DNA of 64,000 nt from an uncultured Eubacteriales bacterium (GTDB taxonomy: Bacteria > Acidobacteriota > Aminicenantia > Aminicenantales > Aminicenantaceae): the NCBI GenBank assembly GCA_964611275.1, contig CAZSZS010000107.1:4720-68719 (forward strand). The letters run 5' to 3'. How positions within the stretch are numbered: position 1 is the first letter of the stretch; every line of letters starts with the position of its first letter. Shown piece after piece: positions 1-63,740 of the stretch. The position numbers and the translations under genes were made by a program. The notes beneath the pieces are model-generated. The model saw only the letters and a list, made by a program, of their open reading frames with translations, was not told where the DNA came from and did not search any database.

Positions 1-144
1 TCTTTGAGGGGTTGAAAGAGACCGTGTTTTGGTATAAACAGAATGAGGATTGGTGGAGGAAAGTCAAACGAAAAAATCCGGAGTTCAAAAAATTTTATAG
101 GGAATACTACAGGAGAAATAAGCGAGACTTGTAAAGGAGGCCTA

Positions 145-1101: not shown

Positions 1102-1103
1102 CA

Positions 1104-2054
1104 TTGCGGATATTTGTGACCGGTGCAACAGGATTTGTAGGGAATCACCTTTTTGATCTGTTAAGTAAGACAGAGGCAGAGTTTTTTGGGATTTGTTTTC
1201 CGGACGAGCCGGAACCTGGTAAGTATCCACCGGGATTTCACATGCACAAGGCTGATGTGCGTTCCGAGAAGGAGATCGAGGAATCCATAAAATTCTCTAA
1301 ACCGGAGTATATCATCCATCTGGCTGCTGTTTCTAATGTGGGGCAGTCATGGAAAAAGAGGAAAGAGACTTTTGAGGTCAACATAATGGGGACCTTTTAT
1401 CTTTTTGAAGCTGTTAGAAAGCATGCCTCTAAGGCGAGGGTCCTTTTTATCAGCTCTTCGGATGTATATGGTTTGCTGGAGCCCCATTCAAAGCCTTTGA
1501 CTGAAAAGGACCCCGTCCGTCCGGTGAGTCCTTATGGATTTACAAAAATGAGCGGGGAAAACCTGTGCCGGTATTATTCAAAAAACGAGGGTTTGGATAT
1601 CATTACAGCCAGGGCTTTTCCTCATACAGGGCCCGGCCAAAGTCCTGATTTTGTGTGTTCTGACTGGGCGAGTCAGATAGCAAGAATTGAAAAAGAGCTG
1701 TCCCCCCCCATAATAAAAGTAGGGAATATAGAGGCGGAGAGAGATTTTATTGACGTCAGAGATGTGGTTAAAGCCTATTTTTCTTTAATCAAAAAAGGCA
1801 GGAGAGGGCATATCTATAATGTGTCATCAGGAAGGGCCTTATCCTTAAAAAAAGTATTGGATATGCTTTTGGAATATTCCGGGGTCGAAATAGATATTAA
1901 AAAAGACAAGACTAAACTAAGGAAAGTCGATATTCCGGTTTTAGTGGGGGAAAACAGGAAGATCAGGGAAGAGATATCTTGGACTCCGGAAGTGCCTATG
2001 GAACAGACACTTTTGGACTTACTCCAATACTGGCGGGGCGTATATCATTCATAA
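1104..2054 (+). CDS. NAD-dependent epimerase/dehydratase, Gmd/Rmd-like (GDP-4-keto-6-deoxy-D-mannose reductase candidate)
   Basis: Second Gmd paralog immediately downstream of gmd. GxxGxxG motif (IFVTGATGFVGNHL) and SDR YxxxK motif (YGFTK). TTG at 1104 gives an N-terminus (M-RIFVTG) parallel to Gmd. The track ORF starts at 1032 and overlaps the gmd 3' end. Confidence 0.6.
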   Translation: MRIFVTGATGFVGNHLFDLLSKTEAEFFGICFPDEPEPGKYPPGFHMHKADVRSEKEIEESIKFSKPEYIIHLAAVSNVGQSWKKRKETFEVNIMGTFYLFEAVRKHASKARVLFISSSDVYGLLEPHSKPLTEKDPVRPVSPYGFTKMSGENLCRYYSKNEGLDIITARAFPHTGPGQSPDFVCSDWASQIARIEKELSPPIIKVGNIEAERDFIDVRDVVKAYFSLIKKGRRGHIYNVSSGRALSLKKVLDMLLEYSGVEIDIKKDKTKLRKVDIPVLVGENRKIREEISWTPEVPMEQTLLDLLQYWRGVYHS

Positions 2055-47189: not shown

Positions 47190-47537
47190 CTATTCGATTT
47201 CAAGTTCCATTTTTTCCAGATATAAATCAGTTCCGTCAAGTGTCTCCAGGTTAATGGAACCACATGAGCTGCAGTTAAGGACCAGGTCGTCTTTAATGGT
47301 CAATGCGCCGCAGTCCTTGCATTTCAGTTTAAGAGGGACTTTTTCGATTTCCAGCTCAGCCTCTGAAGCCAGGGTTTCTTTTTTGTAGATACCAAAGGCT
47401 GTCTCCAGCAGTTCCGGGACAGCTCCGGAAAGCACTCCGACTCGAAGCTTGACATAGGTGATTTTTTTGGAATTTTTTTCCTTTGCCTTCTGCTCCATGA
47501 TTTCAAACAGATTGGCGATTAGAGAAAGTTCATGCAT
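47190..47537 (-). CDS. hypA: hydrogenase Ni-insertion metallochaperone HypA
   Basis: MHE N-terminus (Ni site) and a CxxC…CxxC zinc site. Confidence 0.85.
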   Translation of the reverse strand: MHELSLIANLFEIMEQKAKEKNSKKITYVKLRVGVLSGAVPELLETAFGIYKKETLASEAELEIEKVPLKLKCKDCGALTIKDDLVLNCSSCGSINLETLDGTDLYLEKMELEIE

Positions 47538-48201
47538 TTGCCCGGCGCAGTTTTTTTAGGTTTTTTACGAGATAATCTACGAACTCTTTGATACCGGTTC
47601 CCTCAACAGAACTGATCTTGAATACTTCCAATTTCGGATTGACATCCAGGCTTTCCTGAACGGCCCGGTCTACGTTAAAGGGCATTTTATCTAAAAGGTC
47701 GGTTTTGCTGATGATAAGGGCGTCTGAAGTAAAAAACGCTTTGGGGTACTTTTTGGGTTTATCGTCTCCTTCCGGGACAGAAAGAAGCACACACCGAAGG
47801 CTTTCCCCCAGATCAAAGCTGGCAGGGCATACCAGGTTACCGACATTTTCTATAAACAGAAGATCCAGGTCAGCAGGGATTTCTGAGAATACTTTACCGA
47901 CCATTTTTGCATCCAGATGACAGGCGCCTCCGGTAGATATCTGCCATGCTTGAATCCCTTTTGCTCTTATTCTCTCTGCATCCCTTTCGGTTTCAATGTC
48001 CCCTTCTATCACTGCCATTTTATAACCGGGGGTGAGGACTTCTGAGAGATTTTCAAGCAGGGATGTTTTGCCTGCTCCGGGAGAGCTGAGGAGATTGATG
48101 GCAAGAATTCCCTTTTCAGATAATTTTCTCCTGATATCTCCGGCTATTTTCTTGTTTGAACCAAGCAGGTCTTCCAAAACCATGACTTCTTGTTTTTTCA
48201 T
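47530..48201 (-). CDS. hypB: hydrogenase Ni-incorporation GTPase HypB
   Basis: P-loop (SSPGAGKTSL), CH motif, and SIMIBI GTPase fold. Confidence 0.85.
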   Translation of the reverse strand: MKKQEVMVLEDLLGSNKKIAGDIRRKLSEKGILAINLLSSPGAGKTSLLENLSEVLTPGYKMAVIEGDIETERDAERIRAKGIQAWQISTGGACHLDAKMVGKVFSEIPADLDLLFIENVGNLVCPASFDLGESLRCVLLSVPEGDDKPKKYPKAFFTSDALIISKTDLLDKMPFNVDRAVQESLDVNPKLEVFKISSVEGTGIKEFVDYLVKNLKKLRRANA

Positions 48202-48374
48202 TTTGAAATATCTTTCAATAAGGATTTTAATTTTTTTATAACCACTGGTATCTTCTTTTTCATTTCCTCGGTCAATTTTTCTCCGAGATTGTACATGTTT
48301 TTTGCTTCTATGGCTATTATTTTTATACTTTTAGGGGCTTTCAGGCCTTTTTCAAAAATGGCAACTGAATGGAT

Positions 48375-49493
48375 TCAGCCTTTTGTCTCCTTGTGTTTGG
48401 GGAGAGACACAGAAAACGTGCTTCCTTTTCCCGGAGTGCTCGAGACATCAATAGTGCCCGAATGAGCATCTATTATTTTTTTTGATATGGAAAGTCCCAA
48501 TCCTGAGCCTTTCCCTTGCTTGCTTACGTTCCGGTTGACCCGAAAAAACTGATTGAAGAGCTGGGGAATATGTTTTTCTTCTATTCCCACACCGGTGTCT
48601 TTGATGTCAGTGATGATATACCCATCCTTTTCCCTGAACGATATTTTTACCGAACCGTTTGGTTTGTTGTATTTGACCGCATTGTTCATCAGGTTTGCGA
48701 ACGCCTGTTCCAGAGTTTCCTCGTCTCCCCTGACCGTGCTCTTTCCTGTGGGAGGTTCGATCTCAAGATTTATTTTATTCTTTTCTGCAACAGGCTGCAG
48801 AAATTCGATCTGTTTTTTTAAAAGAGCGAAAAGGGAGACCTGTTTGAATTTTTCCACAAGCTGCCCCTTATCGATCCGGGCCGCATCAAGCCAGTCATTG
48901 ATAAGTTCCAGCAGGCTTTCGACTCTGTTTCTGGCTTTGGATAACATGTCTTTATGCTCTTTTGACATCTCTCCCACAGAACCTGAGAGCATGACCTCAA
49001 AGTACTGGGCAATGGCAACCAGGGGGCTTCTGAGCTGATGGGATACCATTGTGATGAAGTTTTCTTCTATGCGCTTTTTTTCTTTCCTGAGCGATTCAGC
49101 TTCCCTGGACAGCTTTATTTTTTCCAGGCCTCTTTTTATGATGACCCTGAGTTGTTCGGGGGTAAAAGGTTTGGGAAGAAAGTCATATGCGCCTTTTTTC
49201 ATGGCCTCTACGGCTGACTCGACTGTTGCGTAACCTGTAATGACGATCGGAACGGTATCCGGGGATATTTCTCTTATTTTTTCAATCACATCCAAGCCGC
49301 CGATGCCGGGCATTTTTAAGTCAACCAGCGCAATGTCCGGTTTCATTTCTTCTACTTTTTCAAGACCTTTTTTTCCGTCTTCTGCTGTTTCGGTGAGGAA
49401 ACCGTCTTTTTCAAGTATCATACGGCAGGAATCACGCATTGATTCTTCATCGTCTATAACTACGGTAGAATGATTTTTTTTCTGCATGAACAC
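48375..49493 (-). CDS. hybrid response-regulator/histidine kinase (REC-HisKA-HATPase_c)
   Basis: N-terminal receiver domain (Asp in VDLKMPG), H-box (HQLRSPL), and N/G boxes. Confidence 0.8.
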   Translation of the reverse strand: MFMQKKNHSTVVIDDEESMRDSCRMILEKDGFLTETAEDGKKGLEKVEEMKPDIALVDLKMPGIGGLDVIEKIREISPDTVPIVITGYATVESAVEAMKKGAYDFLPKPFTPEQLRVIIKRGLEKIKLSREAESLRKEKKRIEENFITMVSHQLRSPLVAIAQYFEVMLSGSVGEMSKEHKDMLSKARNRVESLLELINDWLDAARIDKGQLVEKFKQVSLFALLKKQIEFLQPVAEKNKINLEIEPPTGKSTVRGDEETLEQAFANLMNNAVKYNKPNGSVKISFREKDGYIITDIKDTGVGIEEKHIPQLFNQFFRVNRNVSKQGKGSGLGLSISKKIIDAHSGTIDVSSTPGKGSTFSVSLPKHKETKG

Positions 49494-49567: not shown

Positions 49568-52500
49568 TCAGGCCCGAAAAATACCTTCTATCTCAGCAAT
49601 GATTTGTGTGTCAGAGAAATGCTTGGCTGTAGAGGCTGAGGACGGACATGCTGACACACAGGTCCCGCATCCTTTGCAGAGGGCTTCGTTCACAACAGAT
49701 ACGCTTCTTTCTTCATCAAAGCTTATGGCTCCGTAGGGACATAGATTGTTGCACAGCCTGCAGCCCGCGCAGAGCTCCGGATCGATTTCAGCTTGAATGG
49801 GTTCGAGTTCTATTTGACCTTTGGAGATATTGGATAATATTCTTGCTGCGGCTGAGCTTGCTTGAGCTACCGAATCTGGAATATCCTTGGGCCCCTGACA
49901 GCATCCGGCAATATAGACTCCGTCTGTCGCCGTACTTGTCGGATCAAGCTTGGGATGTTTTTCAAGAAAGAAGCCGTCAGGGCTTCGGCTTATGGAAAAG
50001 AGCCTTGCCGTTTTTTCCACATCACGCTGCGGTTCTATAGCGTTGCAGAGAATGACCATATCTACCGGTATTTCCCTGTATTTTTTTATCAGAGTATCTT
50101 CACATTTGATGATAAGCGGTTCTGTCCCGTTATCAGAATGCCCGGCTCTAATGACTTCTGATACTTTTCCCCTTATAACGTTTACATCTTCATCGAGTAT
50201 CCTTGAATAGAATTCTTCATATCCTTTTCCGAATGAACGCATATCAATATAGAACTGATAGACTTCCGCATTTGATCTGTCTTTTATTAGATGAGCGAAT
50301 TTAAGGGCGTACATGCAGCATACACGGGAGCAGTATGGATGAAAGTTGATATCTCTGGATCCAACACAATGTATGATACCTATGGCCCTGGGTTCTTTTC
50401 CTTCTTTGGTCACAATAGTGCCTTTAGTCGGCCCGGTGGAGCTCACGATCCTTTCAAACTCCAGGCTTGTGTACACATTATCGAACTCTCCGTATCCGTA
50501 AGGAGTGAGAGCTTTTGAATCAAGAGTGTCATACCCTGTAGTCAAAAGAATCTGGCCGACATTGATCTCTTCTATTTCATCTGCCATACCATGGTCAATG
50601 GCCTGGGCTTCACAAACGGTTTCACAAACATGGCACTCAACGCAGAGTCCGCAGTTCAGGCATCTCGAGGCTTCTTTTGTTGCTTCTTCTTCGGAATAGC
50701 CCAGTTCCACTTCTTCGAAAGTGTAACGCCGCTTTTCAGGATCAAGCGCTTTCATTTCGGTGCGGTCCTTTTTAGGCAGATTCTTGAAAGGAAGGGAATA
50801 CCTGTGGGGCCGATCGTTTTCGTCTCGTTCAGGAAGGGAGTTACACTTTCTTGTTTTAAAATCACTTAGGGGTTCACCCTTGATGAATTTATCAATCACT
50901 TCAGCGGCTCGTTTTCCGTCCCCCATGGCTGTTATAACGGCATCTGGACCGCGAGCCACGTCTCCTCCTGCGAAAACTCCTTTTATTTCAGTTTCCATGG
51001 TATCCGGGTTGATATCAATGGTATTCCATTTCGTAAGTTTGAGATGGGCTTCTTTTTCAGCGTAATTGATTTCAGGTGACTGGCTGACTGCAATAATGAT
51101 GGTATCAATTTTCAGATCATACTCGCTGCCTTTTATGGGTATGGGACGCCGCCTTCCGCTTGAGTCAGGTTCTCCGAGTTCCATTTTTATACATTTCATT
51201 CCCGTTACTTTTCCGGATTTCCCTAAAACTTCGACAGGAGCAGTCAGATACTTTATACGGACCCCTTCTGCCTCGGCAGCCTGGATTTCAGCTTCTTCAG
51301 CAGGCATTTCTTTTCGTGTTCTTCTGTAAAGTATGGTCACTTCATCGGCTTTAAGGCGCAGGGCGGTCCTGGCTGCGTCAATAGCTGTGTTTCCTCCTCC
51401 GATGATGGCCACATTTTTTCCAACCGGTTGAGGTTTTTGAAGGCTTATATTGCGGAGAAAATCAACTCCGTGATAAACTCCTTCGTATTCTTCTTCTCCG
51501 GGAATATCCATTTTTCTGCTGCTGTGGGCACCTGTGGCTATATACACAGCCTGGTACCCCATCTTTTTCAGGGCTTTGATGTCAAAGTCTTTACCCAGAG
51601 CTTTATTTGTCTTTATATCCACACCCAGTTTTTTGATGTATTCTATATCTCGCTTAAGGATTTTCTTTGGGAGCCTGTATTCCGGAATTCCTACCGTGAG
51701 CATACCGCCTTCAACAGGGAGCTTTTCAAAGATGGTGACATCGTATCCTTTTAAGGCCAGGTCATGGCCGCACACAAGGCCTGACGGGCCTGAACCGATG
51801 ATAGCAATTTTTTCTTCTCTTTTCTTCTTGATTTCTGGGGGGTCAGGTTCTCCTTTATTCTCAAATTCCCAATCAATGGCATATCTTTTAAGATTTTTTA
51901 TGGAAACCGCCTTGTCCACAAATTTACGGTTGCATTCTGATTCACACGGGTGGTAGCAGACACGACCGCAGACACTGGGAAGAGCATTTTGCTGCCTTAT
52001 GAGACGGGCTGCTTCCTCAAAGCGCCCCTTTGAGATAAGAGTCACATAGCCTGCGGCTTCCTGGTCGATGGGACAGGTTTCGCGGCACGGAGGCCTGCTG
52101 TCTTTATCAATGACATAGGTATTGGGGATTGCCTGGGGAAAGGTTTTATATATGGCAGAACGTAAAGACTGGTTCTCTTCAAAAGGATTGGGGATGCTGA
52201 TCGGACACGCCTCGGAACATTCTCCGCAGGATGTGCAGTCATCTTTGACGAAACGGGCTTTCTTCCGTACTTTGACCGTGAAATTTCCTATGGATCCCTC
52301 CACTTCTTCCACTTCACTCAAGCTTAGGAGCTTGATATTTTTGTTTTGGGCAACAGATACCATTTTCGGAGTAAGGATACAAGCGGAGCAGTCAAGAGTT
52401 GGGAATGTTTTGTCAAATTTAGCCATTTTACCGCCTATAGTGGATTCTTTTTCTACTAAATAGACGTTATTTCCTGATTCAGCTATCTCTATAGCGGCTT

Positions 52501-52972
52501 GTATTCCGGCAATGCCGGCTCCCACTATCAAAGTGTCTGGATTGACATTAACCTTTACCGGTTCGAGAGGCTGTTGAAGGGCCACTCTGTTTACGGCCGC
52601 TCTTATAAGGGAAGTGGCTTTTTTCGTGGCGCTTTCAATATCTTTATGAATCCAAGAACACTGCTCTCTTATATTGACCATCTGGAACAGATACCGGTTC
52701 ACACCTGCTTTTTCACAGGCCATCCTGAATGTGGGTTCGTGCATTAAAGGGGAGCAGGAAGCGACGATGATCCGGTTCAGCCCCATTTCTTTGATGTCCT
52801 TCATGATAAGGTCCTGTCCGGGTTCAGAACACATGAATTTGTAGTCACGGACAACTTGTACATTTGGCTCATTTTTTATGGCATCGCGCGATTTTTCCAC
52901 ATCTACGGTGGCTGCTATGTTAGATCCACAGTGACATATATAAACCCCTATTTTTATGTTGTTGTCAGTCAT
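49568..52972 (-). CDS. HdrA-like heterodisulfide reductase flavoprotein with inserted GltD-like NAD(P)H domain (HdrL-type), 1134 aa
   Basis: HdrA N-terminal Cys cluster (IGVYICHCGSNIA). FAD motif (GAGIAGIQAA). Inserted ferredoxin. GltD-like 4Fe-4S region with a second dinucleotide fold (IIGSGPSGLVCGHDLA, IIGGGNTAIDAA). HdrA-type CSRVCC motif. C-terminal 2x[4Fe-4S] ferredoxin. Confidence 0.8.
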   Translation of the reverse strand: MTDNNIKIGVYICHCGSNIAATVDVEKSRDAIKNEPNVQVVRDYKFMCSEPGQDLIMKDIKEMGLNRIIVASCSPLMHEPTFRMACEKAGVNRYLFQMVNIREQCSWIHKDIESATKKATSLIRAAVNRVALQQPLEPVKVNVNPDTLIVGAGIAGIQAAIEIAESGNNVYLVEKESTIGGKMAKFDKTFPTLDCSACILTPKMVSVAQNKNIKLLSLSEVEEVEGSIGNFTVKVRKKARFVKDDCTSCGECSEACPISIPNPFEENQSLRSAIYKTFPQAIPNTYVIDKDSRPPCRETCPIDQEAAGYVTLISKGRFEEAARLIRQQNALPSVCGRVCYHPCESECNRKFVDKAVSIKNLKRYAIDWEFENKGEPDPPEIKKKREEKIAIIGSGPSGLVCGHDLALKGYDVTIFEKLPVEGGMLTVGIPEYRLPKKILKRDIEYIKKLGVDIKTNKALGKDFDIKALKKMGYQAVYIATGAHSSRKMDIPGEEEYEGVYHGVDFLRNISLQKPQPVGKNVAIIGGGNTAIDAARTALRLKADEVTILYRRTRKEMPAEEAEIQAAEAEGVRIKYLTAPVEVLGKSGKVTGMKCIKMELGEPDSSGRRRPIPIKGSEYDLKIDTIIIAVSQSPEINYAEKEAHLKLTKWNTIDINPDTMETEIKGVFAGGDVARGPDAVITAMGDGKRAAEVIDKFIKGEPLSDFKTRKCNSLPERDENDRPHRYSLPFKNLPKKDRTEMKALDPEKRRYTFEEVELGYSEEEATKEASRCLNCGLCVECHVCETVCEAQAIDHGMADEIEEINVGQILLTTGYDTLDSKALTPYGYGEFDNVYTSLEFERIVSSTGPTKGTIVTKEGKEPRAIGIIHCVGSRDINFHPYCSRVCCMYALKFAHLIKDRSNAEVYQFYIDMRSFGKGYEEFYSRILDEDVNVIRGKVSEVIRAGHSDNGTEPLIIKCEDTLIKKYREIPVDMVILCNAIEPQRDVEKTARLFSISRSPDGFFLEKHPKLDPTSTATDGVYIAGCCQGPKDIPDSVAQASSAAARILSNISKGQIELEPIQAEIDPELCAGCRLCNNLCPYGAISFDEERSVSVVNEALCKGCGTCVSACPSSASTAKHFSDTQIIAEIEGIFRA

Positions 52973-53844
52973 CTTTGTACCTCTCTTGATATTTTTTCTG
53001 GTTCAAAAGGTATGAGTGAACGGTTGAGGCCCAGCTCGCGGGGAGAGCCACCCAGAGCGTGACCGACGATCTGTGTGAAAAAAAGTACGGGGATCTTAAA
53101 ATCCGTTTCAAATTTTTTATTTATTTTGTTTTGATAGGCTTCCAAGTTGATCTGGCAGAGGGGGCAGGTTGTGATAATTATATCCGCGCCGTTTTCTTTA
53201 GCGCACTCCAGAAGTTTTTTATTGAGGCCCAGACCCACATCAGGATAGGTCGTCATGAGCATCCCGCCGCAGCACTGAGTCTTCATTGGGAAGTAGACAT
53301 TTTTAGCTCCAAGGGCTTCACACAGATCGTCCATCATCTGTGGATTGTCTTGATCGTCCAGTCCCCTTTCAGGTCTCACTATCTGGCAGCCGTAGTATTG
53401 AGCGATCTTTAGGCCTTCCAGGGATTTTTTTGCTTTGGCGGCTATCGTCTCGATGCCCACATCGTTAACCAGGACTTCAAGAGGATGCCTGACCTCGACA
53501 CTTAGATTATACCCGAGTCCTACTTTTCTTAAAGCTTGATTGACTTTTTCCCTCAGGATGCGGTTGTTTTTCAGGATATGATTTGTCTTATAAAGGATCG
53601 TATAGCAGGAACTGCATGGTGCTATGATATCCAGTCCTTTTTTTTCAGCAATAGCCAGGTTTCTGGCAGATATGACAAGAGATATAGTCTCTTTTGTGGC
53701 CATGTAATACGTGGCCCCGCAGCAGTTCCAGTCATCTATTTCTATGAGTTCATGTCCTAACTCATTGAAGACATAGTGCACAGATTCATCATATCCTTTC
53801 GCTGATGCCTCTAGGCTGCATCCCGGATAATAAGAGTAATTCAT
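52969..53844 (-). CDS. HdrB-like subunit (two CCG domains)
   Basis: CCGATYYMA and CCGGMLMTT cysteine-rich (CCG) motifs. Confidence 0.85.
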   Translation of the reverse strand: MNYSYYPGCSLEASAKGYDESVHYVFNELGHELIEIDDWNCCGATYYMATKETISLVISARNLAIAEKKGLDIIAPCSSCYTILYKTNHILKNNRILREKVNQALRKVGLGYNLSVEVRHPLEVLVNDVGIETIAAKAKKSLEGLKIAQYYGCQIVRPERGLDDQDNPQMMDDLCEALGAKNVYFPMKTQCCGGMLMTTYPDVGLGLNKKLLECAKENGADIIITTCPLCQINLEAYQNKINKKFETDFKIPVLFFTQIVGHALGGSPRELGLNRSLIPFEPEKISREVQR

Positions 53845-53897
53845 TTTTTTGCCTCCGAAAACATAAAGGAAGAGGAATGAGAAAGGGATATGATTGC

Positions 53898-54521
53898 TTA
53901 TGATTCCTGCATGGGAATAATATTTTCTACTATCTCTGCTTCCTTAAGTATTTTGGAAAAATTTTTTTTGTGTTTTATTTTTCTGGGGAAAAACCCTATC
54001 CTGCCGTTTTTAGCTAATTTTAAAAACAGAGGGATCATTCCTAAAAGTTTAAATGGATTTGTTCTTAAATAGTAAGCAACTAAAAGACCTGGTTCATAAC
54101 TCAGACCTAAATGGTTTACAAGCCAGACAAAAGAATTGGACAGCGCATAAACAGGGAATTTTTTTGGAAAAATTTCGTTTTCTATAGCCAGCCTTTTCAG
54201 TGTGTAAATAATATCTGTGACTTTAACTCCCTGAGGACACCGGACAGTACAGGAGTAGCAGGAAGCACAGATCCAGATGGTTCTGCTCGAGAGTATGGTA
54301 TCGATATCTTTCGCTCTGAAAAGGGCAATGATTTCCCTTGGCGTTATATCCATGGTATAGCTGACAGGACATGTAGCTGTGCATGTGCCGCACTGGATGC
54401 ATTTTTTTATACTTTCTCCACCCGGGATATTTTGTACTTGGAGCAGGAAAGAATTTCTTAGTTCTTTTTCTTTTTCATTGAGTATGCCAGGTAATATCTG
54501 GCCTGCCTTCCCTTTGGTCAT
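53898..54521 (-). CDS. HdrC-like 2x[4Fe-4S] ferredoxin subunit
   Basis: CIQCGTCTATCP and CASCYSCTVRCP cluster motifs. Confidence 0.8.
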   Translation of the reverse strand: MTKGKAGQILPGILNEKEKELRNSFLLQVQNIPGGESIKKCIQCGTCTATCPVSYTMDITPREIIALFRAKDIDTILSSRTIWICASCYSCTVRCPQGVKVTDIIYTLKRLAIENEIFPKKFPVYALSNSFVWLVNHLGLSYEPGLLVAYYLRTNPFKLLGMIPLFLKLAKNGRIGFFPRKIKHKKNFSKILKEAEIVENIIPMQES

Positions 54522-54925
54522 TTTTTCAGAAGCCTCTCTATGCGTTCGATCAGGTCGTCAGCTTTGACAGGTTTATCTATATAGTCGTCCGGTCCTTCCA
54601 TTCCTTCTTTATCTCCTTTGAATTGGAATCTGGAGCCGGTTACTTCTTTGACTGCAGAAATAAAAATCACAGGTGTGTTTTGGGCGGACTTGAATTCTTT
54701 TGAGGTTTTTATGGCATGACACAATGAGAATCCGTCAAAAAGACTGTCCATCATAATATCCAGAAGAATAAGATCAGGTTTTTCAGATAGGATTTTTTTC
54801 TTTCCTTCTTCGGGATTAGAAGCTGTGATGGCATCATAAGATGCGGAATGAAGGATTGGAGTGATAGCATCTCTGAAATCGGGATCGTCATCGATGATTA
54901 AAATTTTTGCTTTTGCTTTTTCCAT
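54518..54925 (-). CDS. single-domain response regulator (CheY-like REC)
   Basis: DD…D…K receiver residues. No output domain. Confidence 0.8.
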   Translation of the reverse strand: MEKAKAKILIIDDDPDFRDAITPILHSASYDAITASNPEEGKKKILSEKPDLILLDIMMDSLFDGFSLCHAIKTSKEFKSAQNTPVIFISAVKEVTGSRFQFKGDKEGMEGPDDYIDKPVKADDLIERIERLLKK

Positions 54926-54937
54926 TTTATTTCTCCT

Positions 54938-55309
54938 TTATTTACTGAAAGCATTTTTAATTGCCAGTTTTAATTCTTCCTTTCCAAATGATTTTATAAA
55001 ATAATAAAAGATATCTTGTTCTCTTACTTTCGCCTCTAATTCTTTCGTATTTTTTTTGGTTGTCATTATGACTTTTGTATCCGAGTCTATATTTTTTATT
55101 ATGGAAACAGCTTCGTATCCTTTCATCTCTGGAAGTTCGACCGCCATTATAGCACAATGAAAATGATTGGATGTGATTTTTTTTATGGCATCTGTAAGCC
55201 CTTTTCCTGTTTCTACTTGATACTCTTTTTGTTGAAGAAAGGATAATAATGATTTTCTGTCTTTCTCATCAGGGTCAATTATGAGAATTTTTTTCTTAAG
55301 ATTTTTCAT
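54938..55309 (-). CDS. single-domain response regulator (CheY-like REC)
   Basis: Receiver-domain fold. No output domain. Confidence 0.8.
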   Translation of the reverse strand: MKNLKKKILIIDPDEKDRKSLLSFLQQKEYQVETGKGLTDAIKKITSNHFHCAIMAVELPEMKGYEAVSIIKNIDSDTKVIMTTKKNTKELEAKVREQDIFYYFIKSFGKEELKLAIKNAFSK

Positions 55310-55705: not shown

Positions 55706-57448
55706 TTAATTCTTCAAATGGTTTATGATTTCAAGGACAGCCTTTTGTACTGGGGGACTTAATTTATTTCCCGGGGCTACTGAATCCGGCTGTATCCCTA
55801 CTACATACGCATTTTTTTGCATGGACAGATTTTTAATGCTTGATATAAATGGTATGAATTTATGGCTCACACTGGATTGGCTGAGGATGTATTCCAAAGG
55901 AAGAACGGTTATCTTGCCTGCTTTTTCATTAAAATCAACCGCATCAAAGAAAACGAGAGGTTTCTTTTCGCTGGAGCTTTTCAGGCTGTCGTTTCTGATT
56001 ATTTCTGATTCAAGCCATACATCTTTAAATCCGAGACCGCATAGTTTTTTTGCTATATCAATACCGCAGCCGTCGTCACTGCGGTCTTCCTTTCCAGCCC
56101 CTATATAGATTGGTGTTCTGTCTTTCCTTATCTCTTCCAGTTTGTTTTTCCAGTTTCCGGAGGGAGCGTGTGTGACTTTAGCCAAATGGGCGGAGCAGCT
56201 GATACAGGGGTCAAAGGCCCTGACAACGATTTCCATTCTTTGTTTGATCTCATCTTCTTTTCCTGAATCAAGGAGATTTTGGGCAGCGATGTGGCAGTAC
56301 TTCTCGATATCTTCCGCATTCTGGGCCGTAGGGGTCACGATGTCCACATAGGAAATGCGTCCATCGCTGATTTCATGATGATGGATGAGAAGCCCTCTTG
56401 GGGCTTCCACCAGTCCTGTTCCTTTTCCGTTTTTTGCCGTGTATTTGACGGGCTTTGGGGTTTCTTCAAACTTGAGGATTTCATCCACCAGTTCTATGAT
56501 CCTTTCAAAACAGTAACTGATTTCCAGAGCCTGGGCGGCATTATGAAACAAGGGATTGACTTCCCAGCGTTTATTGAAATATTTTTTATACATTTTCCCT
56601 GTTTCACCCTTGAACCTTTTCCCTAAGTTGTTGACTCTGGCTAAGGCTCCTACAGAGTAAGGCTTTCCTTTGTAGCGGCTGCGCTTGCAAAAGGAATGAG
56701 AAACAACAAACTCGTTCGTGAGTTTTTGGTAATCGTCTCTAAAGAATTTTTCGCCTGTGGAAAGCATTATTTCGTCTCCCCAGAATCCATAGTTGTTATT
56801 CCCTGGTTCACAGCAGGCATAGATGGTTTCTTTTTCGGGGACTTCGGGATAATCAAGAGTGCAGAAGAGATCGACGGTCTTTTTAACAAAGGGCATGAAT
56901 TGGACTGCTCTGTTTTTTATAAAGACAAGTTCCTCTAGGGATGGGAATGCGCCGAAACCACCGATGATGGGATTTTCGCCGTGAATATAACGCCCGCTCA
57001 GGACTTTCATGACATGGTTGGCAAAATGCTTCATCTCCAGAGCGATTTTGACTTCAAGTTCGAAGTCCGATGCCATGGCTATGGCATTGGGATATCCCAA
57101 GTAATCAGGGAGAGCAAGGTAGTATGTGTGAAGAGAATGGCTTTCGATCATTTCTCCCATATGCATGAGTTCTCTGCAGAGATAGGATTTGGGATGTATT
57201 TTAATATTAAGTGCGTTTTCCATAGACCGGAGAACTGCGTTTTTATGTGAAAGAGTGCAGATGGCACATATCCGGGGAGACATACTGACATCTTCTTCAG
57301 GAGTTAGGCCGATGGTCAGCTTTTCTATGAGGCGGGGGCCTTCATATATACTGAATTTAACGTCTGATACAACTTTTCCGTCAATGGTGGCTGATATGCC
57401 ACCGTTTCCTTCAACTCTGGCTAGATGGTCTACACTTATCTTTTTCAT
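55706..57448 (-). CDS. [NiFe]-hydrogenase large (alpha) subunit, group 3, fused at its C-terminus to a hydrogenase maturation endopeptidase (HycI/HybD-like) domain
   Basis: N-terminal RICAICTLSH (RxCxxCxxxH) and C-terminal DPCISCSAH Ni-Fe site motifs. The additional ~150 aa after the His carry protease-family motifs (IYIGAGKEDRSDDGCGI, FFDAVDF, SxH). Confidence 0.85.
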   Translation of the reverse strand: MKKISVDHLARVEGNGGISATIDGKVVSDVKFSIYEGPRLIEKLTIGLTPEEDVSMSPRICAICTLSHKNAVLRSMENALNIKIHPKSYLCRELMHMGEMIESHSLHTYYLALPDYLGYPNAIAMASDFELEVKIALEMKHFANHVMKVLSGRYIHGENPIIGGFGAFPSLEELVFIKNRAVQFMPFVKKTVDLFCTLDYPEVPEKETIYACCEPGNNNYGFWGDEIMLSTGEKFFRDDYQKLTNEFVVSHSFCKRSRYKGKPYSVGALARVNNLGKRFKGETGKMYKKYFNKRWEVNPLFHNAAQALEISYCFERIIELVDEILKFEETPKPVKYTAKNGKGTGLVEAPRGLLIHHHEISDGRISYVDIVTPTAQNAEDIEKYCHIAAQNLLDSGKEDEIKQRMEIVVRAFDPCISCSAHLAKVTHAPSGNWKNKLEEIRKDRTPIYIGAGKEDRSDDGCGIDIAKKLCGLGFKDVWLESEIIRNDSLKSSSEKKPLVFFDAVDFNEKAGKITVLPLEYILSQSSVSHKFIPFISSIKNLSMQKNAYVVGIQPDSVAPGNKLSPPVQKAVLEIINHLKN

Positions 57449-58227
57449 TTTGACTCCTTTTTAAATTGTTTCAAAAAATCGATCAGCTTTGTGCCTGAAT
57501 AATTAGCCATTCGTTTCTTTATGGATTCAATGTCAAACCCTTTTTCCTGTAAAAGATAATATTCAGAGGTGAAATTGGCCCCTTCCACATGTCCCCAGCA
57601 ACCGAAGCAGGGCACATTGTGATTCGGACATATGGAGCCGCACCCATCTGCTGTCAGGGGGCCCAAGCAGGGGATTCCTTTATTTAAAAGGCAGTCATTC
57701 TCATTGTATTTGCATGTGACACAGACTGGCCGCGGATATCTTTCCGGAAGACTCCCTTTTACAGCCCGGGTAAAGAGGTCGAGAAACTGTTCTTTCCCAA
57801 TAGGACAGCCAGGGAGATAATGATCTACTTTTATATAAGCATCTATGGGCTTGGACTGGACAGGTTTGGTGTGGGTCATCTCTATATCTCCGTAGACTTC
57901 CTTGTATTTCTTTTTCCACTCATTTGGGTCGGTGAATCTTGCCTGTATGCCACCGACAGTAGCGCACAGTCCTATGGCGATCACGATTTCAGCTCTTTCT
58001 CTTATGTCTTTGAGCTCTTCGATCTCTCTTTCTGTGCTCACAGAGCCTTCTACCAGAGCGATGTCAAGCTTTCCATCTATGTTCTCACTGCTAGCCATGA
58101 GAAAGGACTGTATGTCCACAGCTTTAAATATATCAAGCAGTTCTTTTTCGCAGTCAAGAATGAGTAAAGCATCTCCGGCACATCCTGTTAACTCATAAAT
58201 TCCGATTTTTAATTTTCCATTATTCAT
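57445..58227 (-). CDS. [NiFe]-hydrogenase small (delta) subunit, group 3
   Basis: IGIYELTGCAGD proximal-cluster motif and C-terminal Cys clusters. No selenocysteine. Confidence 0.85.
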   Translation of the reverse strand: MNNGKLKIGIYELTGCAGDALLILDCEKELLDIFKAVDIQSFLMASSENIDGKLDIALVEGSVSTEREIEELKDIRERAEIVIAIGLCATVGGIQARFTDPNEWKKKYKEVYGDIEMTHTKPVQSKPIDAYIKVDHYLPGCPIGKEQFLDLFTRAVKGSLPERYPRPVCVTCKYNENDCLLNKGIPCLGPLTADGCGSICPNHNVPCFGCWGHVEGANFTSEYYLLQEKGFDIESIKKRMANYSGTKLIDFLKQFKKESK

Positions 58228-58237
58228 TGTATCCCCC

Positions 58238-59098
58238 TTAGATGAGCTCTCTCATATGAGTGACATCCCAGTATGTGAAAACAGGGCCGTCTAGACATGT
58301 GTAAATGTAGTCTATGGCGCAGTGTCCGCATTTGCCGACACCGCATTTCATACGTCTTTCAAGAGTCATCAGGATCTGGTCCTTTGGTATATTGAGTTTT
58401 AACAGTTCACTAAGGACAAATTTATACATAACAGGGGGACCGCAAACCAGACTGTAAGTGGTTGATGGATTTATATTCTTTATTTTTGGGAAAAGAGTGG
58501 TCACTACCCCGATGTTTTCCGTCCATTTCCCTGTATCGTCTTGATCCACAGAAAGGAAGCATTCTAAGTCCTCTCGTTCCTTCAGCGAGAGAAATTCTTC
58601 TCTGAGTAGCATTTCCGCCGGTCTTTTGGCTCCGTGCAGGAGAATCACCCTGCCGAACTGGTCCCGATTATCAAGGCAGTAGAGCAGAACTGAGCGAAGG
58701 GGGGCTGCTCCGAGACCGCCCATAACGATCAAGATGTCCTTTCCTTTCATTTGCTCCACAGGAAATCCGTTGCCGTAAGGGCCTCTGATTCCAATCATGT
58801 CGTTTTCTTTAAGCCGGAAGATAGCATCGGTGACTATGCCCGTCCTGCGGATACAGAATTCAAGGAGTCCCGGCCGGGAAGGAGTGGATGAGATTGAAAA
58901 AGGAGCCTCTCCGGCTCCGAGAACGGAGATCATGGCAAACTGCCCGATTCTGTATCTAAAGGAAAGAGCTTTTTCCATATCAGCGATCCGGACTTGAAAG
59001 AATTTGACGTCTTCGGTCAGATGATAGGCACGGACTATTCTTGCTGGTTCAGGGAGAAATGGATTCTCTGTTTGGTTGGCTTTGTTTTCACTGTTCAT
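58238..59098 (-). CDS. hydrogenase gamma subunit: FAD/NAD(P)-binding oxidoreductase with C-terminal [2Fe-2S] (HydG/AsrB/PyrK-like)
   Basis: Ferredoxin-NADP-reductase-like fold and a CGVGKCGHC cluster. Confidence 0.8.
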   Translation of the reverse strand: MNSENKANQTENPFLPEPARIVRAYHLTEDVKFFQVRIADMEKALSFRYRIGQFAMISVLGAGEAPFSISSTPSRPGLLEFCIRRTGIVTDAIFRLKENDMIGIRGPYGNGFPVEQMKGKDILIVMGGLGAAPLRSVLLYCLDNRDQFGRVILLHGAKRPAEMLLREEFLSLKEREDLECFLSVDQDDTGKWTENIGVVTTLFPKIKNINPSTTYSLVCGPPVMYKFVLSELLKLNIPKDQILMTLERRMKCGVGKCGHCAIDYIYTCLDGPVFTYWDVTHMRELI

Positions 59099-60156
59099 TT
59101 TGTCACCTCTTTGCTTAATCTCTTCCAGAAGGCATCCACTTTTTCTCCATCCAAGGATTTGCCTACTGTTTTTACATTTATGTCAACAGGGCAGGTAGCC
59201 ACACATCTGCCGCAGCCTACACAGCCAGGTTTGCCGTACTTTGATATATAAGCCTGAAGTTTATGTGTGTACCATAGTTTCAGCCTGTCAGCGCGCTTTT
59301 TTCTGAAATTTTCTCCTCCTGCTACCTCAGAATAACTTTCTAAGGTACAGGCATCCCAACATCTTTTTATGTCCGAATATTCTTTCTCCAGAGCAGGCCT
59401 GTCTGCCACATTATAGCAGTTGCAGGTAGGGCATACGTTTGAACAGGATCCACAGGCCAAACAGGCATTTCCTAACTCTTCCCACATGGGATCATTGTAC
59501 ATGAGTTCCAAGAGATCACCCAGGGAGTCAAAGTTTATTTCTGTTTTAAAGGCATTCTCTCTTTGATCGCACCATTCAGCGTATTCCTCTATGTCTTTGT
59601 CAGATATGCCTTCTTCAAAGAGATCTGCCTTTGTCCTTATGAGGTCATCCCCTTTGCTGGAACCGATCCACACAATGTATCTTCCTTTAAGTTCGGAAAA
59701 AAAGAGGTCATATCCTTCTTTGATGATATGGGTTCTTGTCGATTTGCACAGGCAGTTTTCATCAGGCCAGCAGGAATGTCCCAGGAGGAGAGTGTTTTTT
59801 CTGGATTCCATGTAATAGGGGTCATAGAATTCATGAGTGAAAAAGTCGTCCATTATCAGAATGCCGTGAATATCACAGGGGTGGATGCCAAAGATTATTT
59901 TTTTGGAAACGTGTGAAAAATCTTCCTTGTATTCTTTTTCAGAAGCTCGAAACATATTGATGGAAGGAGGAAGAAGGATCTTTCTGGGCGGTAGAATCGT
60001 TCTTGTACAATCAGTATCAATTTTATTCAAATCCTGAATGGCTTCGAATTTATGTCTATCCGGTGCAACTTTTACGGGAGCCCATAGATCTGCTTCCTTG
60101 GAAATCTCTTCTAGGAAAGAAGGTAAATTGTCTTCCTTTAGTTTTACGATTTTCAT
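59095..60156 (-). CDS. hydrogenase beta subunit: 2x[4Fe-4S] protein (HydB/AsrA-like)
   Basis: CLACGSCSNVCPTC and CVGCGRCVATCP motifs. The beta-gamma-delta-alpha gene order matches sulfhydrogenase-type group 3b enzymes. Confidence 0.75.
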   Translation of the reverse strand: MKIVKLKEDNLPSFLEEISKEADLWAPVKVAPDRHKFEAIQDLNKIDTDCTRTILPPRKILLPPSINMFRASEKEYKEDFSHVSKKIIFGIHPCDIHGILIMDDFFTHEFYDPYYMESRKNTLLLGHSCWPDENCLCKSTRTHIIKEGYDLFFSELKGRYIVWIGSSKGDDLIRTKADLFEEGISDKDIEEYAEWCDQRENAFKTEINFDSLGDLLELMYNDPMWEELGNACLACGSCSNVCPTCNCYNVADRPALEKEYSDIKRCWDACTLESYSEVAGGENFRKKRADRLKLWYTHKLQAYISKYGKPGCVGCGRCVATCPVDINVKTVGKSLDGEKVDAFWKRLSKEVTK

Positions 60157-60412: not shown

Positions 60413-61774
60413 TCACCTGATCTTGTGTTTTTTTATTTTTGAATAAAGAGTCTTTCTGTCTATTCCAAGAATTTTTGCTGTTTTGCTTTTGTTCCCATGT
60501 TGAGATTTGAGGACAGATTCCATGTATTCTTTTTCAATTTCTTCTAATGTTTTATATTTTCCTCCTGTCGGGAGAATCATGGAGCGGGAAGTGCTTATCC
60601 CATGATAGATGAGGTCATCCAATTCAACTTTTTTACTTCTTGTCAGCACCATGGCTCTCTCTATGGTGTTTTGGAGTTCTCTTATGTTTCCGGGCCAATC
60701 ATAGTCCATAATGGCCTTTTTCGCTTCAGTTGTGAAACCTTTGATGTCTTTGGATAATTTTTGATTGTATTTATGAAGGAAATGTTCGAAGAGCGGGGGA
60801 ATGTCTTCTTTCCTTTCCCTCAAAGGAGGTATGTTTATGGGGACCACACTCAGGCGGTAGAAGAGGTCTTCCCTGAATTTATTCTGTTTCACACGTTCGG
60901 CAAGGCTTACATTAGTGGCGGCAAGTATACGGATATCGACTTTAATGGATTTGGTACTTCCGATTCTGGTGACCTCCCGTTCCTGAATGACTCTGAGGAG
61001 TTTTGCTTGTATATTCATGCTGATATTGCTTATTTCATCCAGGAATATGGTGCCGCCGTCTGCCACTTCAAACCGACCGTGCTTGGTTACATGAGCACCC
61101 GTAAAAGAACCTTTGACATGACCGAAGAGCTCGCTCTCAAAGAGAGTCTCAACCAGTGCTCCGCAGTCGACCACAACAAATGGAGCCTGTTTTCTTTTGC
61201 TGTGTTTGTGTATTTCTGAGGCCAGAAGTTCTTTCCCGGTCCCGCTTTCTCCGGTGATGAGGACCGTGCTTTCAGTGGGGCTGACTCTTTTCATAATGTC
61301 TATGACCTTTTCCATTGAGGTGCTTTTTCCCACGACCATAGACAGTTTATTCTGTTCAGGGTCTTTACTTTGTGCAAAACCTGCTTTAGCCTCAGTTGTG
61401 TTTAGGGCTTTTTTCACTATTGTGCGCAGCTCTTCCGGGCTGAAAGGTTTAGCCAGATAGTCAAAGGCTCCCTGCTTGATGGTATTGACAGCGGATTCTA
61501 TGGAAGCAAATCCGGTGATGATTATGACCGGAACCTCCGGTGTGGATTTTATTATTTTTTTCAGGATATTGATTCCTGGAATTCCCGGGAGTTTGAGATC
61601 CAGCAGAATGACATCGAATCCGGATTTATTTAATATGTTTACAGCCTCTCGTCCATCCGAAGAAGTCTGGACCTCGTACCCGTCTTTCGTAAGAACCTGG
61701 GTACAGGAATCCCTTATGGATTCTTCATCGTCAATGATAAATATTCTTACTTTCTTAGTCTTTTTCGGGTTCAT
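60413..61774 (-). CDS. sigma-54-dependent response regulator (NtrC family: REC + AAA+ sigma-54 activator + Fis-type HTH)
   Basis: Receiver Asp, Walker A (GESGTGKE), GAFTGA-like loop (GSFTGA), and a C-terminal HTH. Confidence 0.9.
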   Translation of the reverse strand: MNPKKTKKVRIFIIDDEESIRDSCTQVLTKDGYEVQTSSDGREAVNILNKSGFDVILLDLKLPGIPGINILKKIIKSTPEVPVIIITGFASIESAVNTIKQGAFDYLAKPFSPEELRTIVKKALNTTEAKAGFAQSKDPEQNKLSMVVGKSTSMEKVIDIMKRVSPTESTVLITGESGTGKELLASEIHKHSKRKQAPFVVVDCGALVETLFESELFGHVKGSFTGAHVTKHGRFEVADGGTIFLDEISNISMNIQAKLLRVIQEREVTRIGSTKSIKVDIRILAATNVSLAERVKQNKFREDLFYRLSVVPINIPPLRERKEDIPPLFEHFLHKYNQKLSKDIKGFTTEAKKAIMDYDWPGNIRELQNTIERAMVLTRSKKVELDDLIYHGISTSRSMILPTGGKYKTLEEIEKEYMESVLKSQHGNKSKTAKILGIDRKTLYSKIKKHKIR

Positions 61775-63740
61775 TTTTTATAGGTAGTATGACAATAAAC
61801 GTGGAACCTTCACCTACTTTGCTTTGGACCTCTATGGTTCCTTTATGCTTTCTTATGAAACTGTAACTGATGGCAAGACCCAGACCTGTTCCTTTGCCGA
61901 CCTCTTTGGTTGTAAAAAAAGGTTCGAAAAGCCTGCTTTTTACATCTTCAGGAATCCCGGGCCCGGTATCCCGGAAATGAATATAGAGGGTATTGTTATG
62001 CCTATCGATTCCGGTTTTTATGGTCAGAGACCCATTTCCTTCCATTGCTTCTGCGGCATTTATGATTATGTTGATAAAGACCTGCTGGAGTTGAGCGCTG
62101 TCAGCTGTGATTTTCGGAAGGGAAGAAGAGTATTCCTTTTTGATTGTGATATTTTGAAAGAGGGTTTTGGTTTCCATAATAGAGAGTGCTTTTTCCAAGA
62201 CATCGTTTATATTGATCAGGCTTGTCTCAGGGTCTTTGGGACGGGCAAACTCAAGCAGTCCTTTCACGATTTCTTTACACCTTGTTGTTTCTTTGACTAT
62301 TTTTCTTAGATTATCGTAATAAGGTATGTCTTTGTCCAAGTCTTCCAGGATCAGATGGCTGTATATGAGTATTCCTCCGAGAGGATTGTTGATTTCGTGG
62401 GCCACTCCTGCGGCCAGTTTTCCGAGAGAGGCTAGTTTTTCAGACTGAATAAGATGGGCCTGCATTTCTCTCAGTTCTTTGGTGCGCTCTTCCACTTTCT
62501 TTTCAAGTGTTTTTCCCCATTCCAACAATTTTTTGTTTGCCGCATCAAGGTCTTCGGTCATTTTGTTAAATGATTCAGCAAGGTAGCCTATTTCGTCTGT
62601 TGAGTCCACGTTGACTTTATGAGAGAGATCTCCTTTTGCGATTTTCCGGGTGGCCTCGACTATTTTGAACAGAGGATCCGTGATTTTGTTTGTGAAAAAG
62701 TAGAGAAGCACAAGCAGCAGGACCACGCATAAAGAGGCCATCAGGATGAACGTCATCATCACTTTTTGGGCTGTGTCGATGTACGGCTTTTCAAGCATGC
62801 CCACATACAGGATCCCTATGATATGATTTTTTGAGTTTTTTATGGGTTCATAGGCTGTGATGTACCAGTCATTAACCACAAAGGCTCTGTCAATCCATGA
62901 TTTGCCTTCCTTTAGTACGGCATCATTGACTTTTTTGGATACCCTGGTTCCAAGAGCTCTTGAACCGTCACTGTTTTCAACGTTGGTTGATATGCGGAGG
63001 TCATGCTGGAATATTGTGGCGGTCCCTATTTCCTTCCCTTTATATTTTTCCTCTTTATAGACTATTTCCTTGACTCTGTCCACGATTTCATAGTTCCTGT
63101 TTATGAGCACTCCCCCATACAAAACTCCAAGAAGATTGTTATCTTCATCCAGAATAGGAGAGGCGGCTTTCAGAATCATCCCGCTTGTCTCTTTATTTTT
63201 GGTTGACTCTGCTGCCTTGGGTGTTAGCTTGATCTCTATGACAGCCTTTTCAGCGAGATCTTTTCCTTCTCTTAATAGGAGTTCTCTAGAAATTATCTGA
63301 GGGGATGCGGCGACTTCCTTTGATAAGGCTCTCTCTATTATTTCGTCTTGGGATCTGTCATCTCCTGTTATGCTGGGATTTCGTGTCCTTATGATGACAA
63401 TTCCTTTGGGATCTGTCACATTAAGTATATCCAGTCTGTATTTTTTTCTCAGTTGGTTTAGGCATTCTGATATGGGAGCATAATCTTTTTTTTTCAAGCT
63501 ATCTTCAAGTCTTTCCCTTTCAGAGGTTAAGCTGACGAATTCTTTTATATCGCTCACTCTTTCGTTGAATACCATCCATGCTGATGATAGGTCGTGTTTG
63601 ACTTTATCTTGAGCCTGTGAAATGAGGGTATTCCGAATAAGTCTTGAGCCAAGAATAAGGGTTATGATGCCCCCAAGTAATATGACAAGAAGAAAGCTTA
63701 GTATTATTTTTTTTCTGATTGAAAAGTGAGGAATCTTCAT
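61755..63740 (-). CDS. sensor histidine kinase with periplasmic Cache-like domain, HAMP, HisKA and HATPase_c
   Basis: Two transmembrane segments flank an approximately 280-aa periplasmic domain. H-box (HEINNPL) and N/G1/G2 boxes. Overlaps the ntrC-like gene. Confidence 0.85.

Follow-up and report, generated by a model that had tools for sequence, protein, structure and literature searches.

A [NiFe]-hydrogenase large subunit of group 3b type joined to an A31 maturation endopeptidase in uncultured Aminicenantes and bacteria of other phyla

The fusion gene

In the DNA of an uncultured bacterium of the family Aminicenantaceae (Acidobacteriota), the catalytic large subunit of a [NiFe]-hydrogenase and a complete A31 maturation endopeptidase are encoded on one polypeptide, and this fusion is confirmed to be real. 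The gene occupies positions 55706..57448 on the minus strand of a stretch of 64,000 nucleotides (assembly GCA_964611275.1, contig CAZSZS010000107.1, positions 4,720 to 68,719), which is called the window below and to which all coordinates refer unless another locus is named. It is a single uninterrupted open reading frame (ORF) with an ATG start and no internal stop, which encodes 580 amino acids (aa) and ends with a stop codon. The product can be divided into a large-subunit domain of a group 3b [NiFe]-hydrogenase (aa 1-421, nucleotides (nt) 56186..57448), recognised by a match to the sulfhyd_HydA model, by Foldseek and by invariant Cys and His residues; a junction (aa 422-445, nt 56114..56185) with conserved residues and fixed spacing; and an endopeptidase domain of the A31 (HycI/HybD) type (aa 446-580, nt 55709..56113), recognised by PF01750, TIGR00072 and its fold. 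All of them are read from the minus strand.

Both nickel-binding motifs of a large subunit are present. The first, RICAICTLSH, corresponds to aa 59-68 (nt 57245-57274) and provides the ligand cysteines C61 and C64, and the second, DPCISCSAH, corresponds to aa 413-421 (nt 56186-56212) with C415 and C418. The polypeptide continues for 159 residues past His421, and this tail carries the motifs of the protease domain, namely IYIGAGKEDRSDDGCGI (aa 447-463), FFDAVDF (aa 500-506) and SVSH (aa 526-529). A large subunit fused to its protease had been proposed in a sequence-only reading of this DNA, whose coordinates, motifs and tail of about 150 aa all agree with the ORF and the motif positions; the architecture as such is borne out by Pfam, by NCBIfam, by the fold and by the uninterrupted frame. 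No internal methionine or Shine-Dalgarno-like sequence that could serve separate translation of the protease domain was seen when the window sequence was read by eye, and no intrinsic terminator was found 3' of the fusion gene.

Identity and integrity of the protease domain

The tail is a conserved domain of the A31 protease family in which no catalytic residue is missing, and it is under purifying selection. The Pfam family PF01750 (HycI), the profile by which the sequence-only reading had suggested that its claim be checked, scores 30.0 bits in the C-terminal region, above its gathering score of 23. The NCBIfam model TIGR00072 (hydrogenase maturation protease) matches aa 449-578 at 51.5 bits against a cut-off of 47.45, and at 55.6 bits when the tail is scanned alone. 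The same reading had named a tail outside the protease family as the outcome that would speak against it; what was found is a tail that passes the curated thresholds and matches the fold. The models of narrower sub-families remain far from their equivalog cut-offs (HycI 34-39 bits versus 119, FrhD 23-28 bits versus 135), and the tail belongs to the A31 superfamily, outside the HycI and FrhD orthologous groups.

When aa 422-580 were compared with the sequences of the PDB by phmmer, only HycI of Escherichia coli (2e85, 2i8l) and HycI of Thermococcus kodakarensis (5zby) were found, with E about 0.04. In the phmmer alignment D459 (nt 56072-56074), D502 (nt 55943-55945) and H529 (nt 55862-55864), the metal-ligand candidates, stand in register with GDDG, DATD and TTH of E. 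coli HycI, positions which we take to be its metal-binding Asp16, Asp62 and His90. In A31 enzymes the metal is bound by Asp/Glu16, Asp62 and His90/93 (E. coli numbering). Among 63 aligned fused homologues D458, D459, G462, D502, S528, H529, G551, Q553 and P554 are invariant.

An AlphaFold2 (AF2) model of aa 422-580 was obtained with a predicted local distance difference test score (pLDDT) of 83.7. Its top 10 Foldseek matches in the PDB are all maturation proteases (probability 1.0, template modelling score 0.54-0.70), including 5zby, 5ija, 5ttx, 2e85, 2i8l, 1cfz and 2kml; they are HycI or HybD of T. kodakarensis, E. coli or a thaumarchaeote. Rank 11 is an uncharacterized Wolinella protein (with it the template modelling scores run from 0.52 to 0.70), and the hit that follows, an unrelated one, has E 0.044. 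For the ratio of nonsynonymous to synonymous substitution rates (dN/dS, Nei-Gojobori method, window versus relatives) six informative pairs gave 0.06-0.3 in the protease domain, and three further pairs were saturated at synonymous sites. The hydrogenase domain gave 0.03-0.10 and the linker 0.1-0.5, and in the near-identical pair of loci L003/L004 (dS 0.02) the protease domain gave 0.53. On these sequence grounds the domain is predicted to be catalytically competent.

The hydrogenase large subunit

The N-terminal part is matched by PF00374 (NiFeSe_Hases) with E 2.3e-34 and 119.6 bits, the Pfam cut-off being 25.8. Among NCBIfam models sulfhyd_HydA ranks first with 371 bits, aa 4-424 being aligned to positions 5-425 of the 426 in the model, and ShyA ranks second with 338 bits. 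Both scores are far under the equivalog cut-offs (880 and 700 respectively), and the large subunit is an equivalog of neither HydA nor ShyA. The best Foldseek matches are the alpha subunit of Pyrococcus furiosus soluble hydrogenase I (SHI; 9nf0_H, E 2.5e-29) and T. kodakarensis HyhL. In the alignment of the 63 fused homologues C61, C64, C415, C418 and H421 are invariant. Profile matches, structural matches and the make-up of the operon all place the large subunit closest to group 3b, the sulfhydrogenase type, and the complex is predicted to be an NAD(P)-linked, cytoplasmic group 3b [NiFe]-hydrogenase.

The junction

The bond predicted to be cut lies between His421 and Leu422 (nt 56186|56185). 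It is followed by about 14 residues, LAKVTHAPSGNWKN, which are the equivalent of the assembly peptide, and then by the N-terminal helix of the protease domain. The segment can be taken as only about 14 residues long because the phmmer alignment with T. kodakarensis HycI starts at tail residue 16 (aa 437) and a confident helix in the domain model (aa 433-443) precedes the first strand of the protease. In E. coli Hyd-1 and Hyd-2 the extension measures roughly 15 residues, which is near the length of this part of the linker. The protein thus looks like a normal precursor and a complete protease joined end to end.

Within the junction W433 is invariant, and A423, V425, A428, P429 and I440 are conserved in at least 90% of the 63 fused homologues. 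The GxG motif was found in 219 fused homologues; in 214 of them it lies 27-29 aa past the His, and in a few, low-complexity insertions stretch this distance to as much as 78 aa. Long insertions of this kind, in linkers or in protease loops, were noted in P0271, P0272 and P0142; the insertion in the linker of P0271 consists of repeated (T/S)E(N/S)xxR units, and P0272 has a G/N/S-rich stretch within the protease domain. From the length argument alone cis cleavage is sterically conceivable, because 14 flexible residues could span the protease domain.

Distribution of the fusion

A homology search with the fusion protein returned 1819 proteins at E <= 1e-10. The best 120 of the 1819, which come from NCBI, JGI, ENA and Logan assemblies, all have a length of 572-597 aa, align over 97-100% of the query and share 64-91% identity with it. 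Of the large subunits retrieved, 220 of 224 are fused, and the fused set spans 44-91% identity. A scan of species-representative genomes gave 19 loci, which come from Aminicenantes or Acidobacteriota wherever the label is informative. No locus that extends to the 3' end of the gene lacks the fused protease domain; all 16 translated genomic copies (the window and 15 loci) are free of stops, the 13 full-length related ones as well as three that are incomplete at the C-terminus.

The sequence-only reading had called for a search for fusions in related genomes and for a check of the junction for a stop or frameshift. The search gave 13 full-length related copies and at least 220 fused homologues, and in all of these, which come from independent assemblies, the junction is uninterrupted; for this reason a missed stop or frameshift is excluded. 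For the idea that two adjacent genes have been joined by an error of assembly or sequencing no supporting evidence was found, and its probability is negligible: 13 genome copies of full length, independent of each other, have the same continuous ORF, the fused homologues retrieved from NCBI, JGI, ENA and Logan assemblies number 220, and the junction residues are conserved and under purifying selection.

The fusion reaches beyond the Aminicenantes. According to NCBI labels it is found in Candidatus Eisenbacteria, Latescibacteria DG_63, Candidatus Desulfaltia and a 'Clostridiales' metagenome-assembled genome (MAG), and MAGs labelled as Desulfobacterota are also among the carriers. The fused protein of Latescibacteria DG_63 was deposited as 'hypothetical protein AMJ46_10055'. 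It was P0142 (616 aa), found by the search of representatives with the tail, that opened the view on fused relatives outside the Aminicenantes. This search, a single-sequence phmmer against 1.84 billion representatives that leaves room for independent fusions in other hydrogenase groups, gave 205 hits; among the 150 tail hits listed, P0122 and P0142 are the only large subunit-protease fusions, and both belong to this clade. A different fusion of the HycI family was also noted, P0172 (490 aa), which has an N-terminal HycI domain (62 bits) and a C-terminal ApbE flavin-transferase domain (293 bits).

Four close relatives, P0290-P0293 (427-440 aa), are unfused. Their chains stop 7-8 residues past the His (20 in P0293), and the unfused tail LVEVRKKE matches the start of the linker in their fused neighbours, the tail start LVEV(K/R) being shared with P0290-P0293. 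Unfused large subunits are encoded at positions 1796..3118 of L020 and 6001..7287 of L021, and the sources are labelled Eisenbacteria or are unlabelled. It was considered that the fusion had arisen from, or reverted to, adjacent genes, and this was rejected: directly downstream of P0291 and P0293 no protease gene is present, and the next gene encodes a phosphorylase of the PNP_UDP_1 family. In a neighbour-joining tree of the hydrogenase domain (no bootstrap) P0290-P0293 nest inside the fused clade, which suggests that they lost the protease domain secondarily. All this is explained most simply by one ancient fusion event, after which the protease domain was occasionally lost again.

Gene neighbourhood and the separate protease gene

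The fusion gene is the last of a four-gene hydrogenase operon, and all genes named in this section lie on the minus strand. The operon begins with a hydB-like gene for an Fe-S subunit of 353 aa (59095..60156; PF17179 Fer4_22, E 3.4e-30), which is syntenic in 14 related loci. It is followed by a hydG-like gene for an FAD/NAD(P)-binding subunit of 286 aa (58238..59098; FAD_binding_6, NAD_binding_1 and DHODB_Fe-S_bind) and a hydD-like gene for the small subunit of 260 aa (57445..58227; PF01058 Oxidored_q6, E 3.3e-25), the stop of which overlaps the start of the fusion gene. Upstream of the operon stand a Cache sensor kinase (61755..63740) and a sigma-54 activator (60413..61774). Downstream, in this order, come two single-domain response regulators (54518..55309), an Hdr-like module with HdrC-, HdrB- and HdrA-like proteins (49568..54521), a hybrid response regulator-histidine kinase (48375..49493), hypB for the Ni-insertion GTPase (47530..48201; PF02492 cobW/HypB/UreG, E 9.7e-22) and hypA for the Ni metallochaperone (47190..47537; PF01155 HypA, E 5.9e-31).

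The gene order is kept in related loci, the Hdr-like module being absent from L001 and L007. In this module the HdrC-like protein has 207 aa, the HdrB-like protein 291 aa with two CCG domains, and the HdrA-like protein 1134 aa with an inserted NADPH module of the GltD type (Fer4_20 and Pyr_redox_2); the module may link the 3b hydrogenase to flavin-based electron bifurcation. The set of regulators that flanks the hydrogenase operon is unusually dense, and its arrangement is kept across the relatives. For the region upstream of the sensor kinase of L002, L005 and L017 an [FeFe]-hydrogenase was considered and rejected, as by Pfam the two L002 proteins are only NuoF/GltD-like and ferredoxin-like.

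A separate maturation protease also has its place in this cluster. In L004, L008 and L019 an intact gene for a protein of about 162 aa, which matches PF01750 at 26-39 bits, is located between the response regulator-histidine kinase gene and hypB. In the window the same slot holds a remnant of 58 codons (48201..48374), recognised by phmmer and tblastn; phmmer against the intact proteases of L008, L004 and L019 gave E 3e-11 to 5e-20. The remnant represents roughly the last third of the 162-aa protein, and the N-terminal two thirds with the three metal ligands are deleted. The tblastn alignment ends at residue 162, and the 5' part crosses the stop codon of the response regulator-histidine kinase gene. 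Judging from the ORF coordinates, the stop of the remnant appears to overlap the ATG of hypB. Similar remnants are present in L001 and L002, and no trace of a separate protease was detected in L007, L009, L010 and L015. The separate protease has been lost repeatedly, and the fused domain has been kept with invariant catalytic residues; the cluster in the window is now without any protease except the fused one.

In L004 (positions 1..1958) a second [NiFe]-hydrogenase is encoded directly upstream of the Cache kinase, and its large subunit has the motif DPCHACGTH followed by an ordinary extension of 29 aa. This enzyme may be a client of the separate protease. When its two subunits, large and small, served as tblastn queries against the window, no second hydrogenase was found there. 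It may be that the separate protease served another enzyme and was lost along with it.

Proposed maturation and alternative explanations

According to three papers (PMC2865534, PMC5299533, PMC6769069), cleavage after a conserved His or Arg is the last step of maturation and takes place only after cofactor loading. In P. furiosus SHI the residues past the same His have to be removed by FrxA, a HybD-like protease, for the enzyme to be active (PMC2865534). The protease binds the cofactor-loaded large subunit stably and largely independently of the extension sequence (PMC5299533, PMC6769069), and because of this a tethered protease is mechanistically plausible.

The tethered A31 domain is probably the dedicated maturation endopeptidase of its own group 3b precursor, which it would cut after His421. 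In such a scheme the Hyp machinery, two members of which, HypA and HypB, are products of this gene cluster, would insert first Fe(CN)2CO and afterwards Ni while the precursor is open, and the tethered protease would recognise the Ni-loaded site by means of its Asp-Asp-His triad. Once Ni is in place the His421-Leu422 bond would be cut, the 159-aa fragment of assembly peptide and protease would leave, and the new C-terminus would close the active site; the mature subunit of 421 aa would then assemble with HydD, HydB and HydG. An intramolecular first cut is favoured because tethering guarantees 1:1 stoichiometry and a high local concentration, and the released domain could act in trans afterwards. 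The stricter version, in which the protein's own A31 domain makes a single intramolecular cut of the His421-Leu422 bond only after Ni insertion and no trans protease is needed, is put forward tentatively, as possible rather than probable. The first residues of the linker match the 7-8-aa tail of the unfused relatives, which would have to be processed in trans.

Several observations weigh against a dedicated processing role of the tethered domain. The occurrence of cleavage, its site, its dependence on Ni and its cis or trans character are all matters that we infer, and for cleavage of the fusion protein the ground is analogy with HycI, HybD and FrxA. An intact separate protease is kept in the same cluster of L004, L008 and L019; therefore the fused domain is not always the sole protease available, and in these three relatives the separate protease might be a real processing enzyme. 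The view of the genome covers 64 kb, and a protease gene elsewhere in it is possible. The fused domain itself is divergent: it scores only 30 bits with the Pfam HycI profile, phmmer matches it to proteases of the PDB with E about 0.04, and GAGK stands where GxGN is usual. Finally, the full-length AF2 model (mean pLDDT 72.8) falls below a pLDDT of 50 at aa 407-427 and gives no usable geometry between the domains.

As the main rival it could be supposed that the fused protease is active between molecules only, one precursor cutting another or a released domain cutting the others, and that the fusion serves co-expression and stoichiometry. This is rather unlikely, though it has its arguments: standalone A31 proteases act in trans by nature, L004, L008 and L019 have a separate trans-acting protease besides the fusion, and tolerance, in some fused homologues, of linkers up to about 50 residues longer (His to GxG of up to 78 aa) means that the exact geometry is maybe uncritical. 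On the other hand, the spacing kept at 27-29 aa in 214 of 219 homologues suggests a geometric requirement, and tethering gives the cis reaction the highest effective concentration. The protease domain could also stay attached as a chaperone, a lid or a Ni-sensing pseudo-protease, the enzyme working as a subunit of 580 aa, an explanation which is favoured by the divergence of its sequence from canonical proteases and which we nevertheless regard as improbable. In mature [NiFe]-hydrogenases the C-terminal His is buried close to the active site; the three catalytic or metal-binding residues are invariant, which is unexpected in a pseudo-enzyme, and P0290-P0293, which lack the domain, end a few residues past the His like ordinary precursors. 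Stable uncleaved complexes of a protease with its large subunit were isolated in Salmonella (PMC5299533), whereas uncleaved P. furiosus SHI, the nearest characterised homologue, is inactive (PMC2865534).

There is very little to recommend the explanation that the fused domain serves another hydrogenase or another role, the large subunit being cut by a separate protease whose gene lies in some other part of the genome. It can draw on the intact separate protease that adjoins hypBA in three relatives, on the second [NiFe]-hydrogenase of L004 with its ordinary 29-aa extension and on the limitation of the genome view to 64 kb. However, the separate gene of the window is a catalytically void remnant and is undetected in several relatives, tblastn with the L004 subunits found no second large subunit in the window, and a protease tethered 14 residues from the canonical cleavage site is the most parsimonious processor.

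Comparison with known systems

The nearest known systems are P. furiosus SHI (HydBGDA) and T. kodakarensis Hyh, which, like the window, have a four-gene operon with the same subunit types: a Fer4_22 beta, an FAD/NAD(P) gamma, an Oxidored_q6 delta and a NiFe alpha subunit. SHI also has the same C-terminal motif, DPCxSCxxH, and needs processing for activity (PMC2865534). The P. furiosus alpha subunit, however, has only four residues (-VVRL) past the His, which are cut by the separate FrxA, in contrast to 159 residues including a protease in the window protein. Identity of the window alpha subunit to SHI and Hyh is only 33-40%, and, unlike in these systems, the host is bacterial and the operon lies next to an Hdr-like module.

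With the standalone enzymes of MEROPS family A31 (E. coli HycI, HybD and HyaD, P. furiosus FrxA, T. kodakarensis HycI/HybD) the protease domain shares the HMM (hidden Markov model) family, the fold, the Asp/Glu-Asp-His metal positions and a similar domain size of about 145 aa. Those enzymes are free proteins of 150-165 aa which act in trans, whereas the window domain is part of a 580-aa polypeptide and is joined to its presumed substrate 14 residues past the cleavage site; this is the point of difference. The window protease shares 17-23% identity with solved A31 structures and has GAGK in place of GxGN.

The sensory group 2b HoxC/HupV and the CooH/Ech-type large subunits end at the His or Arg and need no protease. 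Like the fusion, they have a final checkpoint that is free of a separately encoded partner; they have dropped the extension together with the cleavage, whereas the window protein has retained the extension and seems to have taken the protease into its own chain.

Significance

In the full-text literature, with subscription journals mostly outside it, no description of a natural large subunit-protease fusion or of an autoprocessing [NiFe]-hydrogenase was found, engineered fusions only, which is consistent with the statement of the sequence-only reading that the architecture had not been described. Both component families are known; what appears to be new here is a widespread and conserved fusion of the large subunit with its protease in uncultured anaerobes. 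Databases already contain fusion proteins of this kind, which carry automatically assigned names that reflect a single domain, such as 'hydrogenase maturation protease', 'sulfhydrogenase subunit alpha' and 'hydrogenase large subunit'. Because automatic pipelines name them by one domain, surveys that rely on such names may miscount either domain in Aminicenantes, Eisenbacteria, Latescibacteria and related MAGs.

The assembly of a [NiFe]-hydrogenase has its final checkpoint in C-terminal cleavage, and how A31 proteases recognise the Ni-loaded precursor is still a question; the part played by the extension peptide is likewise under debate (PMC6769069, PMC5299533). Searches of the PDB with the tail by phmmer and Foldseek returned free proteases only and no protease-precursor complex. 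A natural fusion of substrate and protease is a built-in 1:1 complex for structural work, and it offers a simple route to the distinction between cis and trans cleavage and to the dependence of cleavage on Ni. It is also a possible shortcut where NAD(P)H-linked hydrogenases of group 3b are to be made in a foreign host, for which the right protease otherwise has to be supplied (PMC2865534). If the stricter version with a single intramolecular cut is true, the fusion would be a natural, covalently trapped protease-substrate complex, in which a D459, D502 or H529 mutant could make visible the read-out of the Ni-loaded site, and the autoprocessing precursor would be the first self-maturing [NiFe]-hydrogenase.

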